64,000 bases of DNA, from the NCBI RefSeq assembly GCF_041916015.1, contig NZ_JAYSAH010000019.1:353-64352 (forward strand). The letters run 5' to 3'. The notes beneath the pieces are model-generated. The model did no database searches. It had not been told where the DNA came from and saw nothing but the letters and a program-made list of their open reading frames with translations. This stretch comes from Sphingopyxis sp. (GTDB taxonomy: Bacteria > Pseudomonadota > Alphaproteobacteria > Sphingomonadales > Sphingomonadaceae). Shown in pieces: positions 955 through 10,544 of the stretch (position 1 is the stretch's first letter; the number at the start of each line of letters is the position of its first letter). The position numbers and the translations under genes are program-made.

Positions 955-1007
955 AAGCCCGGCTGCCTCCTTGCGCTAACCAATACCTTTTCTGACGCCT
1001 TTGGGGC

Positions 1008-1028
1008 ATGCGACCGATAATGTCGTAC
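1008..1028. promoter_or_regulatory. Palindromic operator ATGCGAC-N7-GTCGTAC, DriD/WYL-box-like
   Basis: Perfect CGAC-N7-GTCG core ending 20 bp upstream of ATG 1049; 12/14 match to ATACGAC-N7-GTCGTAT, the Caulobacter DriD consensus as I recall it. Confidence 0.5.
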
Positions 1029-1048
1029 ATGGGTCATATCAAAGCGCG

Positions 1049-2512
1049 ATGAGCAGAAATATTCGAACAAGCACCACTGATCCGATCCAGATCCCTACAC
1101 TTCCGGCCGCATCAGGACGCATCGGCATATCCTTCTGTCCAGGAAAACAAGGGCCTGCGCTCGCTGGCTTTACCTGGAAGCGTGATCTTGCGACCGATCT
1201 AGACGCGGTGCGTGGGTGGGGGGCTGCCGCTGTCGTCTCTCTGATTGAGAAGCACGAGATGGAGCTGCTGGGGGTCGCAGACCTGGAGACTGCGGTTGCT
1301 GCGCGTGGGATGGAATGGTTTCATCTCCCAATCCCCGACGTCACCGCTCCTGGCGAGGAATTCGAGCAACGATGGCACACGGCCGGAGCCCGGCTGCGCA
1401 GTCTACTCACCGACGGGAAAAGCGTCTTTATCCATTGCCGGGGAGGGCTGGGCCGAGCCGGCACAGTGGCGGCGAGACTGCTCATCGAACTTGGCCTTGC
1501 TGACGCTAGTGGTGCAATCGCTCACGTTCGTGGCGTCAGGCCTGGCGCCATTGAGACGAAGGCACAAGAAGATCACTTGCGAGAGATCGAGCGTATCTAT
1601 GATTGCTCATATGGCTGTTTGGTTGGACTGGCGGTCGGAGATGCTGTGGGGGCGACGCTCGAGTTCAAGCCGCGCGACAGCTATGCCCACATCACGGACA
1701 TGGTCGGGGGAGGGCCATTCGGCTTGGATGCCGGGACCTGGACCGATGACACCTCCATGGCCCTTGCGCTGGGAGAAGCTCTGCTCGCCAGCGCGGCCAA
1801 GGGCTCGGCGTTTGAGCCGGGAGAAGCACAACGGCGCTTTGTCGATTGGTGGAGGAACGGCGCCTTCAGTCCCACGGGCAGTTGTTTTGATATCGGGATC
1901 GCAACCCGGCAGGCCCTTTCTCGGTTCGAGGAAACGGGCGACCCGATTGCCGGCTCGACCGATCCGTACTCAGCAGGCAACGGCTCACTAATGAGGCTCG
2001 CGCCAGTCGCGATCTGGGGGATACAGCAAGATCCCGCAGTAGTGACACGAGTAGCCCGCCTACAGAGCATGACCACGCACGCTGCAGATGCGTGCCTCGA
2101 GGCCTGTGAAGCGTATGCACTGGTCTTGCGGGCGGCTATCCTAGGTGCCGACTTTGAGGAAGCACTGGCGGTTCCCTCGGGCGAATATGGACCGGAGGTC
2201 GGTCCAATCATGGCCGGTAGCTGGCGCGGGAAAGCACGCGATCAGATTGCGAGCAGCGGATTCGTCGCGCACAGCCTCGAAGCAGCGATCTGGTCCGTGG
2301 CAAACACGACGAGCTTCGACGACGCAGTGCTGTTGGCAGCCAACCTCGGTGAGGATGCCGACACTACTGCCGCAATTGCCGGGCAGTTGGCTGGCGCAAT
2401 TTACGGCGCATCGTCGATCCGCCGATCATGGCTAGAAAAGCTGGCATGGCGCGACAAAATTGAGAATCTCGCGCGTAATCTGGCGTTCCCGGCAGTCGCG
2501 CTCTCAAACTAA
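1049..2512 (+). CDS. Fusion of a CX5R (CDKN3/dual-specificity-like) phosphatase and an ADP-ribosylglycohydrolase (ARH/DraG family)
   Basis: N-terminal HLPIPD loop and HCRGGLGR P-loop (1433-1456). C-terminal GDAVG, WTDDT (from 1739), GNGSLMR and GEDADTTAAIAG motifs. ATG 1049 preferred over TTG 1001. Confidence 0.9.
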   Translation: MSRNIRTSTTDPIQIPTLPAASGRIGISFCPGKQGPALAGFTWKRDLATDLDAVRGWGAAAVVSLIEKHEMELLGVADLETAVAARGMEWFHLPIPDVTAPGEEFEQRWHTAGARLRSLLTDGKSVFIHCRGGLGRAGTVAARLLIELGLADASGAIAHVRGVRPGAIETKAQEDHLREIERIYDCSYGCLVGLAVGDAVGATLEFKPRDSYAHITDMVGGGPFGLDAGTWTDDTSMALALGEALLASAAKGSAFEPGEAQRRFVDWWRNGAFSPTGSCFDIGIATRQALSRFEETGDPIAGSTDPYSAGNGSLMRLAPVAIWGIQQDPAVVTRVARLQSMTTHAADACLEACEAYALVLRAAILGADFEEALAVPSGEYGPEVGPIMAGSWRGKARDQIASSGFVAHSLEAAIWSVANTTSFDDAVLLAANLGEDADTTAAIAGQLAGAIYGASSIRRSWLEKLAWRDKIENLARNLAFPAVALSN

Positions 2513-2693
2513 CGTCGCGGCCGATACATGGCAGCGATCGGCGGCGTTGCTGTTCGGCCCGCATTGCTGCCCATGGGCACATAATGTGTCATGCTTGATG
2601 CCCTATCGGTGAATTAGCGGATAATGCGTCAGGTTCGACCCTTTACAGAAGGCCCCCGGCGGCGGGATCAGACGGCAGGCTTGGCCCAATTAC

Positions 2694-3818
2694 CTACAAC
2701 GGGATCTTGGTCCCAGAAATACGTGCGGGGTCCAAGCCTGCCTCCTCCGGCTGGAGGAACCGCGGTTTCGATTTGTCTGGATCAAACGAGGCGCCCGTCT
2801 TCCACATTGCCATCATGATCACAGCGAGCTTCCTTGCGACGGCAACGCGAGCCTTGAGAAATCCGATCTTTGTTGCCAGCCGGAGGCCCCAAGTACGCAA
2901 TGAACTTTCGGTTTTGATTGTGCGAAGCAGCACGGTGGCTGCCGTGATTAGGTGCGACCTGGTCAGCTTGTTTCCGTAACGGCTGATCCGGCCGCGGCGC
3001 GCGGTGGCGCCGGATTGATACAGATTGGGCGTTAGGCCGAGATAAGGCCCGACATCTTGATTGCTTCTAAAGCGGTACGGGTCTCCGACGGCGCTGTAAA
3101 ATGACAGCGCTGTAATTGTCCCAACGCCAGGAATCGTCTGAAATCTGGCGCAAACCGGGATGCTGGCGGCCATTGTGCGCATCTTTCGATCCATATCCCA
3201 GATATGAGAGCGCAGTTCTTCTCCCATCCTGACCAGGGGATCCAAATCGACGCGGATCGTCACGCCGTTGGTCCTCAAAAGCCTGAGTTGATTCGCGACT
3301 TCAGCTGCGAGCGATCCTCGCCCATGCAGGAGCTTGATACTGGCACCGTGCAATCTGAATATGGACTGGAGCAGCGCATCCGTCCTGGCTCGATGCTTTA
3401 GCAGGGTTCGACGGATGTTGATCATTATCCGGATGTCCTGGTGCTCCACCGGTTTGATGAAAACATGGGGACCGAAGGACTGCGCCAGTCGGCCAAGCTC
3501 AGCGAGACCTTTGGCATCATTCGCATCAGTCTTTTGACGTCGGATCGCCAGGAATTTGCTTGATTTGCGAACGTCGACGACTTGAACGGGAAACCCGAAT
3601 GAACGGAGATCCCGAACCATTTGAGTGCCGACACCGGCCTCGATCGTAATAGACTGGACAGGCTCAACGCCGAACCGTCGAAGGATATCTCTTATCGGAG
3701 CAGCGCGGGTCTCAGTCATTGCCTCGAAGAAAACGTGTCCTTCGACATCGACGAGGCAGACCGCAGTCTCCAAGTGGCCGGCGTCGAGGCCGACCCAGTA
3801 GCGCAGGTGCCGTGGCAT
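2694..3818 (-). CDS. IS110-family transposase/recombinase (DEDD RuvC-like domain plus Tnp serine domain)
   Basis: GLD12, IE60, KTD98ANDA (D101), TIPGVG, YLGLTPNLYQSG, ARKLAVIM; GGGAG RBS before the ATG. Confidence 0.9.
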   Translation of the reverse strand: MPRHLRYWVGLDAGHLETAVCLVDVEGHVFFEAMTETRAAPIRDILRRFGVEPVQSITIEAGVGTQMVRDLRSFGFPVQVVDVRKSSKFLAIRRQKTDANDAKGLAELGRLAQSFGPHVFIKPVEHQDIRIMINIRRTLLKHRARTDALLQSIFRLHGASIKLLHGRGSLAAEVANQLRLLRTNGVTIRVDLDPLVRMGEELRSHIWDMDRKMRTMAASIPVCARFQTIPGVGTITALSFYSAVGDPYRFRSNQDVGPYLGLTPNLYQSGATARRGRISRYGNKLTRSHLITAATVLLRTIKTESSLRTWGLRLATKIGFLKARVAVARKLAVIMMAMWKTGASFDPDKSKPRFLQPEEAGLDPARISGTKIPL

Positions 3819-3937
3819 TGTGCTCCCGTACGACGTTTGTTTCTTTCGCTTGCCCTACTGACCTTGTCGGGGCTGTCCGACTAGGATTCGTCCTCCGGCA
3901 TGTGATAGTGAGGTAGGAAATCGAAGGAGATGATAGG

Positions 3938-4549
3938 ATGGGGCCGCGGGAGGCGTTGGATGGCCTAATCAGCGAGCGAGGAGAGACCTACGCATCAATT
4001 TCGCGCCTCCTCGGGAGAAACTCGGCATACATCCAGCAGTTCATTAAACGAGGTTCTCCAGTCCGCCTTGACCAAAGCGATATAGCGCTGCTGGCATTGC
4101 ATTTTGACGTGCCCGTAGAGAAGCTCGGTGGAAAGGAGGGGCCGACGGTCGGGCAGCGTTCGATAGTCAAAGTCCCCTTGCTGAACGGGACAGGTAACGA
4201 TTCACGCTCACAATGGCGGCTGGTTGATGCGGCTTGGCTCGGTCGGCTGTGTGATCAGCCCGCCAGTGTCGCAATCTTGCCAATCGTTGGCGAGGCGATG
4301 GAGCCCACCCTCTGCAATGGCGACGAGGTTATGATTAGCCGAGTTCGCTTCCAGGAAAGCGTGCGTGAAGGCCTTTACGCCATCCGTGGGTCTTCTGAAA
4401 TCTTCGTAAGGCGAATAGCGATCGACCCAACGAAGAACCGTCTGACCGTTCTTACTGACCACCCTGCATATCCGAGCTGGCAGGGCATCCCGCGCAAGGG
4501 CGTCGATATTGTCGGCCGGGTGATCTGGATCGGAGCTCGGGTGACCTAG
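3938..4549 (+). CDS. HTH + S24-like (LexA/CI-type) transcriptional regulator with degenerate peptidase active site
   Basis: N-terminal HTH (TYASISRLLGRNSAYIQQFIKRGSP); S24 fold motifs VGEAMEPTL, GDEVMI, GLYAI, FVRRI, IVGRVIW. Confidence 0.8.
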   Translation: MGPREALDGLISERGETYASISRLLGRNSAYIQQFIKRGSPVRLDQSDIALLALHFDVPVEKLGGKEGPTVGQRSIVKVPLLNGTGNDSRSQWRLVDAAWLGRLCDQPASVAILPIVGEAMEPTLCNGDEVMISRVRFQESVREGLYAIRGSSEIFVRRIAIDPTKNRLTVLTDHPAYPSWQGIPRKGVDIVGRVIWIGARVT

Positions 4550-4759
4550 CTGTCATTATGACACCGCGCTGCCTGAGGCTCTAAGCGGCCATCCCAGCGT
4601 GCGATGCTGGTGCGGAGCAAGATGGGTAGCAGTCGCGCTGGCTGGGAGGTGAAACGACGACTCGCACAAGCGCAGTCGGACAAAGCGCAGGCCATGAATC
4701 TTTCACCGTGAACGCTGATGTGCGGAGGCTGAGCAGCCGCAGTGCCGAATTAGCGCGCT

Positions 4760-4780
4760 GCTACCTAGAGAGCTACCTAG
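4760..4780. repeat. Tandem direct repeat GCTACCTAG x2 (4760-4768, 4772-4780), possible integrase arm-type sites
   Basis: Exact 9-bp repeats with a 12-bp period, ~65 bp from the tRNA 3' end. Confidence 0.5.
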
Positions 4781-4845
4781 CACAAAAATGCTCTCAATCG
4801 CCCGATCCGGCGACCTTAGTATCTGATTGAAAAGTAGGGGGAAAA

Positions 4846-4921
<76 letters not shown>

Positions 4922-5033
4922 ACATGCCGGTTTCGGCATTCTTTGCGGGGCGGGGAAACTCCCTGTCTCGCGAAGAGAGCGCGCCGCTATCATGGGGTTG
5001 CGCGCTTGGCAATGCCCTTCGCGAAAATTTTTC

Positions 5034-8575: not shown

Positions 8576-9480
8576 GGCGCCTTCGGGACTTCGGGGATGG
8601 CGCCCGGCGCAGGCTTCAGCAACTGCGCTTCGGCGTCTTCCGGTGTATAAGGACGCAGCACCGACACCGCATCGACCTTTGCCGGGTCGGCGAGCGGGCG
8701 GGCGAGCGCGCCGTCATTCTGGCGGCGCACGACGATCGCGACCGGGATGTTGGGCGGATAGAGGCCGCCTGTACCTGAGGTGACGAGGATGTCGCCGGGC
8801 TTGAACGGATTGTTCGCGATATTGAGCGTGCGGACGTCGAGGTCGCCGTTGCCGCGGCCATAGGCAAGCGCGGGCAGGCCATCGCGCGCGCGGCGGACGG
8901 GGACGATCGTGTCGATGTCGGTGATCAGCAATACCTGCGACACCGATGGTCCCGACCCCAGCACGCGTCCGATCAGCCCGTCGGCACCGCGCACCGGCTG
9001 TCCGGCCGCGACGCCGAGATTGCGGCCGATGCTGAGCAGAGCGATGCGCTTGCTGCTCGTCGAGGTCGAGGTGAGGAGATAGCCGTTGGCGATCGCGCTC
9101 TTGTCGGTTTCCTGCAGCTTGAGCAGCGCCTTCAACTGGCGATTCTCTTCCTGCAGCGAGCTGGTCGCGACGAGCTGCCGCCGCGTCTCGGCGAGCTCCT
9201 TGCGCAGCCGCCGGTTCTGCGACCCCGCGCCGACATAGGCCGACACGGCATCGTCGATGCCGGAGATCGAGCCGATCACCGACCGGGTGGCGCGCGCTAC
9301 CGGCGCCGTCACCTCCTGGCTGGCGAGGCGAAGCTGGGCGAATCCGACGGGGTCAGCGACCGACAGGATCGCCAGCAGCAAGCCCGCCACCGCCCCGGTC
9401 ACCGCAATGACATAGGCAGCGAACAGGCTGTACTGAGCCTTTCGGGATTGCCCCGGACGCCGATGTGCCGGGCGGACCAT
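8572..9480 (-). CDS. mreC: Rod shape-determining protein MreC
   Basis: N-terminal TM, coiled coil (EENRQLKALL), GLIGRV, GDILVTSGTGGLYPPNIPVA. Confidence 0.92.
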   Translation of the reverse strand: MVRPAHRRPGQSRKAQYSLFAAYVIAVTGAVAGLLLAILSVADPVGFAQLRLASQEVTAPVARATRSVIGSISGIDDAVSAYVGAGSQNRRLRKELAETRRQLVATSSLQEENRQLKALLKLQETDKSAIANGYLLTSTSTSSKRIALLSIGRNLGVAAGQPVRGADGLIGRVLGSGPSVSQVLLITDIDTIVPVRRARDGLPALAYGRGNGDLDVRTLNIANNPFKPGDILVTSGTGGLYPPNIPVAIVVRRQNDGALARPLADPAKVDAVSVLRPYTPEDAEAQLLKPAPGAIPEVPKAP

Positions 9481-9497
9481 GAGTCAGAAGCCTTCGA

Positions 9498-10544
<1,047 letters not shown>

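Follow-up and report, generated by a model that had tools for sequence, protein, structure and literature searches.

A putative repressor-gated IS110-family recombinase module with a candidate guide RNA, resident in tRNA-Lys islands of sphingomonads

ISEc11, ISKpn4 and ISPa11 are IS1111-type members of the IS110 family of insertion sequences (IS), which have a 3′ non-coding region (NCR) and a seekRNA (Siddiquee et al. 2024, PMC11187229). Here we describe a module in a window of 64,000 nucleotides (the whole stretch of DNA that was analysed, G000:C19:353-64352) from the 3.19-Mb draft genome, in 111 contigs, of a Sphingopyxis sp.; it comprises an IS110-family recombinase gene, a divergent gene for an S24-domain regulator and a candidate guide RNA. 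The module resembles the seekRNA-bearing IS1111-type elements in its DEDD and serine transposase, in an RNA that is encoded downstream of the gene and is probably processed from the transposase transcript, and in an RNA scaffold that is conserved while the loops vary between lineages (PMC11187229). The RNA measures 82 nt in ISEc11 (PMC11187229) and ~90 nt here. Unlike these elements, the module has no sub-terminal inverted repeats, occurs in one copy per genome, has an obligate divergent repressor gene and a fixed island location, and its RNA loops show no variation within a clade whose proteins have diverged to 57% identity.

The C-terminal catalytic domain of the recombinase, including the serine motif, aligned with the IS621/IS110-group bridge recombinases (E ~1e-9), whereas the N-terminal domain is weakly similar to that of IS621. 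The module would share with IS621 the logic of RNA-guided recombination (Durrant et al. 2024; Hiraizumi et al. 2024, PMC11208158). However, the bridge RNA of IS621 lies 5′ of the gene, is ~177 nt long and has two binding loops (PMC11208158), whereas the RNA described here is 3′, ~90 nt long and has one large internal loop. The Piv/MooV-type DEDD invertases have also been named as relatives of IS110 transposases (PMC11187229). They provide a precedent for an IS110-type enzyme that is kept single-copy and non-transposing and performs site-specific inversion for its host, but we found neither an invertible segment nor inverted recombination sites at the locus studied here. We know of no report of Piv with a paired repressor.

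We interpret the locus as a repressor-gated RNA-guided recombinase module that descends from a 3′-NCR IS110 element and became fixed as a single copy in tRNA-Lys islands, and we give this reading a probability of roughly 0.55. It builds on what was observed of the module: its anatomy, synteny and copy number, the selection on its genes, and the structure of its RNA with a family-wide scaffold. The features of the module in the window are the following.

2673-2764, minus strand: structured RNA of ~90 nt, a candidate guide of the seek/bridge type (minimum free energy, covariation, covariance model)
2694-2774, minus strand: C-terminal tail of the open reading frame (ORF), codons 349-374, which runs into the RNA element (variable stop, substitution ratio of the tail)
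2775-3818, minus strand: recombinase core, codons 1-348 of 374 (Pfam/NCBIfam, invariant catalytic residues, substitution ratio)
3819-3937, no strand: divergent control region of 119 bp with two TAGGA(A/T)T-type boxes (spacer lengths, conservation of the boxes across clades)
3938-4549, plus strand: S24-domain regulator with a putative helix-turn-helix (HTH) and a dead dyad, Ala120 and Arg158 (Pfam, dyad comparison, substitution ratio)

The ORF at 2694-3818 (−) encodes an intact IS110-family DEDD/Ser recombinase of 374 amino acids (aa). The Pfam models DEDD_Tnp_IS110 (PF01548) and Transposase_20 (PF02371) matched residues 9-153 (E = 2e-11) and 224-300 (E = 1e-21), respectively, and the NCBIfam model NF033542, 'IS110 family RNA-guided transposase', scored 194 bits against a cut-off of 140. 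An initial annotation, made from the sequence of this DNA, had listed D12, E60, D98, D101 and a QSG serine as intact catalytic residues. All of them (the latter as Q268-S269-G270) proved invariant in an alignment of 15 recombinase sequences with identities down to 49%, and the GLTP..YQSG serine motif aligned with the solved transposases of IS621 and ISCro4. The ratio of non-synonymous to synonymous substitution rates (dN/dS; Nei-Gojobori), a calculation that the same annotation had suggested, was 0.10-0.14 at dS 0.2-0.8 for codons 1-348 of the recombinase, and 0.06-0.13 for the S24 gene over pairs with dS of at least 0.17. Both genes are under purifying selection (dN/dS ~0.1). A dead, grounded IS in decay would fit a single copy with no recognisable ends, in an island that here is probably a remnant cut by an IS21 copy. 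This explanation is hardly credible, given a dN/dS of ~0.1 across saturated dS, invariant catalytic residues and an RNA that covaries.

The S24 gene (3938-4549, +) encodes a protein of 203 aa that matches Pfam Peptidase_S24 and lies head-to-head with the recombinase gene. In its N-terminal part no Pfam HTH model reached E = 1e-3, and the 60 conserved residues are HTH-like by eye only. The linked S24 proteins all read G-[E/D/H]-A-M (V in L064) and [V/I/A]-R-R at the dyad positions. The window protein has GEAM and VRR, with Ala120 and Arg158, where a paralogue from its own genome has GDSM and VKR. As the catalytic Ser and Lys are replaced, self-cleavage is excluded for the whole IS110-linked S24 clade. 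The paralogue (G000:C22:13172-13816, 41% identical) represents a dyad-intact family that is present in 150 of the 174 sampled genomes of the taxonomic family, and the abundant S24 paralogues at 35-48% identity form a separate, catalytically intact family.

The regulator recalls SetR of the SXT/R391 integrative and conjugative elements (ICEs) as well as lambda CI and LexA, with which it shares the S24 fold, a putative HTH and the divergent promoter layout; like SetR, it lies at the island end opposite the integrase. It differs from all three in the clade-wide replacement of the catalytic Ser and Lys, which excludes RecA-stimulated self-cleavage, and in its regulated neighbour, a recombinase instead of a lytic or transfer operon. 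The 119-bp divergent region noted in the initial annotation was found as described (3819-3937). The 'phage-style switch' that it proposed stands with respect to the divergent layout but not as a switch driven by the SOS response and autocleavage, because the dyad is dead in the whole linked clade. The spacer between the two genes measured 119-120 bp in 44 loci, 125-136 bp in 10 more and 181-200 bp in 9. In the spacer alignment, TAGGA(A/T)T-type boxes at 3881-3889 and 3913-3921 were conserved across clades, and these two boxes are putative operators. No consensus promoter was detected in the 119-bp region by a simple sigma-70 scan. A palindrome at the S24 stop (TGTCATTATGACA, 4551-4563) was discarded, being unconserved even within the 90% clade.

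We then scored the pairing of the two genes in the loci fetched in this analysis, with at least 750 bp of upstream flank for the set with recombinases of at least 50% identity. The S24 gene was head-to-head in 54 of the 55 loci of this set (recombinases 50-100% identical), a count that overstates independence and to that extent tells against our reading, since many paired loci are near-identical. It was present in none of the 70 loci with a recombinase of at most 43% identity. The sole exception is L032, where an IS3 copy has inserted at a distance of 149 bp upstream. At least six well-separated lineages agree on the pairing, and the identities of recombinase and S24 protein fall together (99/99.5, 82/85, 72/66, 70/65, 58/53, 57/50 and 50/38%). 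These loci indicate that the pairing is obligate and old.

The same picture was obtained when starting from the S24 gene. For the 95% S24 variant, the recombinase was present in 10 of 10 contexts, and in 300 genomes of the order S24 homologues of at least 50% identity always stood with a recombinase or in broken loci, namely G007 (broken by an IS256) and G020 (truncated). No clean empty-site S24 allele was found among the relatives of the genus, the 300 genomes of the order and the 10 variant contexts; the S24 copies without a recombinase are only the IS-broken loci G007, G020 and L032. The synteny and empty-site checks that the initial annotation had proposed thus both favoured its view of the locus, as did its count of copies: the recombinase is single-copy in the draft genome, with no second copy by DNA or protein search. 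Because there is neither a second copy nor an empty-site S24 allele, an ordinary recent IS insertion is excluded. Relatives of the recombinase with at least 56% identity were found in 3 of the 300 genomes, one copy each, while ~40% relatives occurred as two copies in each of two genomes. One of these ~40% relatives (G125) is an IS of 1716 bp, whose non-coding sequence measures 163 bp at the 5′ end and 458 bp at the 3′ end. The module was absent from the plasmid collection, where all matches were to the attachment site (att) and the tRNA only.

The recombinase gene is not bracketed by inverted repeats, either terminal or, as the initial annotation had noted, sub-terminal. The sole strong inverted repeat pairs 2674-2687 and 2729-2742; its two arms both lie at the 3′ end of the recombinase gene, and it corresponds to a stem of the RNA. 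Two features characterise the IS1111 subgroup: the ~12-bp sub-terminal inverted repeats are lacking at the locus, and the longer non-coding region downstream of the transposase gene is present, with the RNA at the 3′ end. Mobile elements are recognised by several copies or different sites and by definable ends, whereas here we found one copy per genome in fixed synteny. No conserved terminal sequence was seen beyond the S24 stop in any between-clade comparison, and no left end could be defined.

The end of the recombinase ORF overlaps the RNA. For its last 26 codons, dN/dS was 0.5-2.1 with low dS (Nei-Gojobori), and the position of the stop differs by clade, giving proteins of 349, 370 or 374 aa. 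In the 349-aa forms, the DNA that matches the ORF tail is non-coding, yet conserved. The variable stop and the dN/dS of the tail argue that this DNA is constrained as nucleic acid and not as protein, and 2694-2774 is probably not a selected protein segment.

The stretch 2673-2764 (−) is conserved far above coding sequence, and this conservation ends exactly at the 3′ end of the RNA (..GCCUGCCG). The predicted fold consists of a hairpin H1, a 14-bp stem H2 around an internal loop of 12+13 nt, and a hairpin H3, with a minimum free energy of −47.8 kcal/mol (z = −5.5). In 19 distinct RNA sequences, 98.4% of cells were paired and 4 pairs showed compensatory changes, while slid controls reached 25-55% only. 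A covariance model built from the RNA sequences scored 83-93 bits in S24-linked loci outside the training set. It also matched four S24-less relatives with ~42% identity (28-40 bits, E = 2e-7 to 1.5e-4), in which the RNA lies at most ~110 nt downstream of the transposase stop, the stems covary and the internal-loop sequences differ. Among the S24-linked loci, the loop does not change on its 3′ side over 57-100% recombinase identity; the 50% lineage L064 differs. An Rfam search of 2300-5000 returned the tRNA only and no family for this RNA. A conserved scaffold with lineage-specific loops is what is expected of the guide RNA of the family, here in the 3′ position known from IS1111-type elements (PMC11187229), and we therefore consider 2673-2764 (−) a candidate guide RNA, for which binding and guiding are predicted. 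The locus thus appears to share with IS110/IS1111 elements a structured, element-encoded RNA with variable loops.

These data also bear on the idea of an ordinary IS of ~1.3-1.4 kb (2513 to ~3930), whose RNA specifies a target just upstream of the S24 gene and which is found once per genome because each genome offers one target. Such an element would have a size typical for the family, and the internal loops of the RNA are invariant wherever the S24 gene is the left neighbour. In addition, 9 nt of the loop resemble box A (3913-3921), with 8 of the 9 positions identical. We did not rely on this match, as the sequence of box A changes from clade to clade and that of the loop stays the same, so that the two do not covary. 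We found no S24 gene of the clade that was unoccupied, the copies without recombinase being those broken by IS (G007, G020 and L032). Moreover, the two genes diverge together down to 50/38%, which implies that they became associated once, long ago, rather than by repeated retargeting. A targeted IS of this kind is quite improbable.

On the other side of the S24 gene, the module borders a tRNA gene.

4550-4845, no strand: island arm beside att (76-80% matches in the module-less islands L135, L136 and L137)
4846-4921, minus strand: tRNA-Lys(CTT), of which the 3′ 45 nt (4846-4890) form the island attachment repeat (ARAGORN, Rfam)

DNA common to 24 genomes of the genus begins at ~4843, so the DNA to the left of this position is an island at the 3′ end of the tRNA gene. 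At least eight sphingomonad genera (Sphingobium, Altererythrobacter, Porphyrobacter, Rhizorhapis, Novosphingobium, Croceicoccus, Blastomonas and Erythrobacter) carry the block ~2644-4890 with a DNA identity of 90-99.7%; the block was also found in many metagenome contigs, and it always abuts the 45-nt 3′ part of tRNA-Lys. Island and module are both intact in Altererythrobacter fulvus KACC 19119, Novosphingobium taihuense CGMCC 1.3432 and Sphingobium sp. CECT 9361. Exact 45-nt att copies flank the module in ~25 loci. The island of A. fulvus (G042) extends over 95 kb to a second repeat of 48 nt, and that of N. taihuense (G044) over 81 kb to its distal repeat. In five genomes, a P4-type tyrosine integrase of ~425 aa with an arm-binding domain is encoded ~0.8 kb from the distal repeat, followed by SLT, primase-like, Strawberry-notch helicase and ParB-like genes. 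In L020, conjugation genes follow the module. The att direct repeats and the adjacent integrase by which a tRNA island is recognised are therefore present in the relatives G042 and G044. The genome from which the window comes, as assembled, contains one att copy and lacks any homologue of the island tyrosine integrase. Only a ~5-kb island remnant is assembled there, and the island was probably cut by a multi-copy IS21, leaving the rest (integrase and distal att) outside the assembly. By eye, the start of the contig (L003:1-130, 352 bp before the window) lies inside a fragment of an IstB-like gene, the IS21 helper ATPase.

A conventional integration system is thus present in these islands, and the IS110/S24 block sits at their other end as an accessory module. 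The att-proximal 90-230 bp (4617/4755-4845) are common to tRNA-Lys islands without the module or the S24 gene. Two direct repeats of GCTACCTAG at 4760-4768 and 4772-4780, conserved whether or not an island carries the module, probably serve as arm sites for the integrase. It is very improbable that the recombinase itself is the integrase or excisionase of the island, acting on the tRNA-Lys att. It does lie at the tRNA-proximal end, where integrases are often located, and the assembly of the window's genome has no island-type tyrosine integrase. However, complete islands have the P4-type tyrosine integrase next to the distal att, so that island integration can be explained without the IS110 enzyme; moreover, the att arm also occurs in islands without the module, 45-nt tRNA repeats are a signature of tyrosine integrases, and the pair is also found away from tRNA-Lys.

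Downstream of the recombinase, the module is followed by a non-coding tract and a cargo gene.

1001-2512, plus strand: fusion of a PTP-phosphatase and an ADP-ribosylglycohydrolase (ARH), convergent with the recombinase gene (Pfam, synteny in the 70-100% clades)
2513-2672, minus strand: tract from the RNA to the stop of the PTP-ARH gene, with a variable hairpin and two ~26-bp motifs (clade comparison)

The metagenome contig L154 (3 Mb, 70% clade) is colinear with positions 1008-4543 of the window at 68% DNA identity and has the same order of tRNA-Lys, S24 gene, recombinase and ARH, so the element has not moved relative to its neighbours over this divergence. In L159 and L157, two S24-less relatives, the IS goes on for another ~170 bp after the RNA. 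As this is the same length, the tract 2513-2672 may be left over from the ancestral IS or be its right end, still retained. The missing ends would then be explained in part by the 3′-NCR layout together with this match in length. The ~26-bp motifs (GTCAAAnnTGACgCATTAT type, at about 2617-2643 and 2575-2603) are conserved in the 70-100% clades while the intervening sequence diverges. We found no consensus RNA fold for the tract with these motifs, and a genome-wide REP-type repeat was rejected, since they are absent elsewhere in the genome.

A further explanation takes the S24 gene, the transposase, the guide RNA and the right end as one selfish, passenger-carrying IS of ~2 kb, which moves rarely, and only to sites of one kind (island or ICE ends), and whose own repressor holds it at one copy. 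In its favour, the clades have in common a block whose limits are exactly the S24 stop and the 3′ end of the RNA (window 2672-4547 compared with L028; L043 3219-5141 compared with L057), the guide RNA has been retained, and purifying selection with frequent in-situ inactivation is typical of mobility genes. Furthermore, the pair occurs in unrelated contexts in different clades. But the two sharp borders fall where constrained features end and need not be transposon ends, the between-clade comparisons gave no conserved terminal sequence past the S24 stop, no genome has two copies, and the synteny with tRNA-Lys and ARH holds over 70-100% identity. We regard this explanation as somewhat unlikely, and retain the fixed, repressor-gated recombinase module as the preferred reading.

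Several observations weigh against the preferred reading. In at least 6 of ~20 genomes the recombinase gene is broken by other IS or by contig breaks while the S24 gene is intact; the contig breaks end in foreign IS sequence, and the breakpoints differ (residues about 117, 132, 143, 221, 240 and 278). In the metagenome copy L149, the recombinase is frameshifted next to an intact S24 gene. These losses imply that the host and the resident island can do without the recombinase. Pairs with 50-72% identity stand in other contexts, beside a Tn7-like tniQ, a DUF6946 gene, hipBA or Sbn/ParB genes, which implies that the pair has relocated at times. In addition, no recombination product and no target or donor site was identified, and k-mer and pattern searches of the locus and the whole genome gave no matches of the RNA loop to DNA above controls. 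The loci with a broken or frameshifted recombinase are L054/L068, L056/L067, L065, L055, L062/L066, L063 and L149.

Purifying selection combined with frequent local loss suits a function in mobility or at the level of the element better than a host function. Of the suggestion in the initial annotation that the gene is domesticated, the stable single-copy residence therefore holds, while host domestication is not proven, the gene being broken in at least 6 of ~20 genomes. Its broader proposal of a regulated island resident instead of a free IS agrees with the single-copy residence, the synteny and the selection; the regulation is what we infer, as are repression, RNA loading and the reaction catalysed.

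In the mechanism that we propose, the module consists of the divergent S24-like repressor without self-cleavage, the IS110 recombinase and the ~90-nt guide-type RNA, which would be encoded at and just past the true 3′ end of the recombinase gene. It would descend from an IS110-family IS with a 3′ NCR that has lost its IS behaviour. The repressor would bind the conserved boxes of the 119-bp region and thereby hold the recombinase and itself off, until a non-SOS signal relieves repression. The recombinase, loaded with the RNA derived from the 3′ untranslated region, would then perform site-specific recombination, most likely on the borders of the module itself or on adjacent island DNA. As the RNA loops are invariant, the specificity would be fixed across most of the clade, and the outcome would be rare relocation or exchange within islands rather than genome-wide transposition. 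It is rather doubtful whether one can go further and see a transposase lineage turned into a repressor-gated, fixed-specificity recombinase that serves the islands, with a non-cleaving LexA-fold protein as a dedicated switch for another input. Such an enzyme might exchange or capture the defence cargo located immediately downstream of its guide RNA, or act on competitors for the tRNA site.

Bridge- and seekRNA recombinases are under intense study as programmable genome editors, while little is known of their natural regulation and of roles outside transposons. The clade described here would offer a dedicated natural regulator, namely a non-cleavable repressor of LexA/CI fold that appears to have co-evolved with the enzyme, together with an RNA scaffold of ~90 nt that is compact, has a single loop and covaries clearly. 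It also provides evidence, as read from its sequences, of an enzyme that has long been kept functional without proliferating. It makes testable whether larger mobile elements can recruit IS110-type enzymes and how the activity of these enzymes is restrained.

The ARH protein is 77-87% identical in L154, L125, L153, L025 and L051, and is thus better conserved than the recombinase itself. The fusion gene (window 1001-2512; L154:4299-5795) lies tail-to-tail with the recombinase gene in the 70-100% clades, whereas in the 58% clade (L057:4280-5152) an ARH-domain gene is found on the S24 side instead. A functional link between the ARH fusion and the recombinase pair is possible. In some loci, an SMC/AAA_15 and SIR2 set replaces the tract and the ARH gene from ~2650. 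This alternative cargo (L012:5201-9125; L146) encodes an 818-aa SMC_N/AAA_15 protein, a 195-aa protein and SIR2_2, and looks like a defence system. On the module tree, SMC-type cargo appears in at least three separate places among ARH-type loci, so cargo swaps have recurred.

Integron integrases under LexA control are another case of a recombinase controlled by a repressor. As in integrons, the recombinase here lies beside a spot with differing cargo (ARH- or SMC/SIR2-type) in near-identical modules. Unlike integrons, however, the locus has an enzyme of another family, no attC-like repeats around the cargo and two main cargo types only. Both homologous exchange between islands and site-specific recombination are possible causes of the swaps, and the former explains them as well as an integron-like activity does. 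A 2.2-kb mini-island with a degenerate tRNA-Lys att′ at the cargo junction was rejected, as the local alignments behind it reached p ~0.01-0.04 in few loci and no significance in the window.

Rearrangements were seen at the S24 side of some modules. In Sphingobium sp. CECT 9361 (L045:1657-5269), a 3.6-kb insertion lies at the S24 stop, with the sequence of 4545-4549 on both sides, and carries a different IS110-family gene (32% identical). In the metagenome loci L013-L016, an unrelated C-terminus takes the place of the S24 sequence from codon 157 onwards (total length 224 aa), and the gene is followed after 38 bp by a tyrosine integrase and then SLT, with no att or arm between; this looks like a fusion of two island ends. 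Tandem islands with 45-nt partial tRNA copies between them were observed at tRNA-Lys in L011 (G007:C1:1006000-1020000) and L137 (G046:C2:94500-108000). The inner island of G007 carries copper-resistance genes (MerR, P-type ATPase and CopD), and the S24 gene of this genome is truncated by an IS256-family element amid a pile of IS. The integrase end of the A. fulvus island (L139:7730-8653 and 9357-10328) encodes a cNMP-binding and TIR protein of the CAP12/Pycsar-type effector kind and a RES-domain protein, and its module-proximal end (L138) carries a WYL/WCX regulator and a pair of UvrD and PD-(D/E)XK genes.

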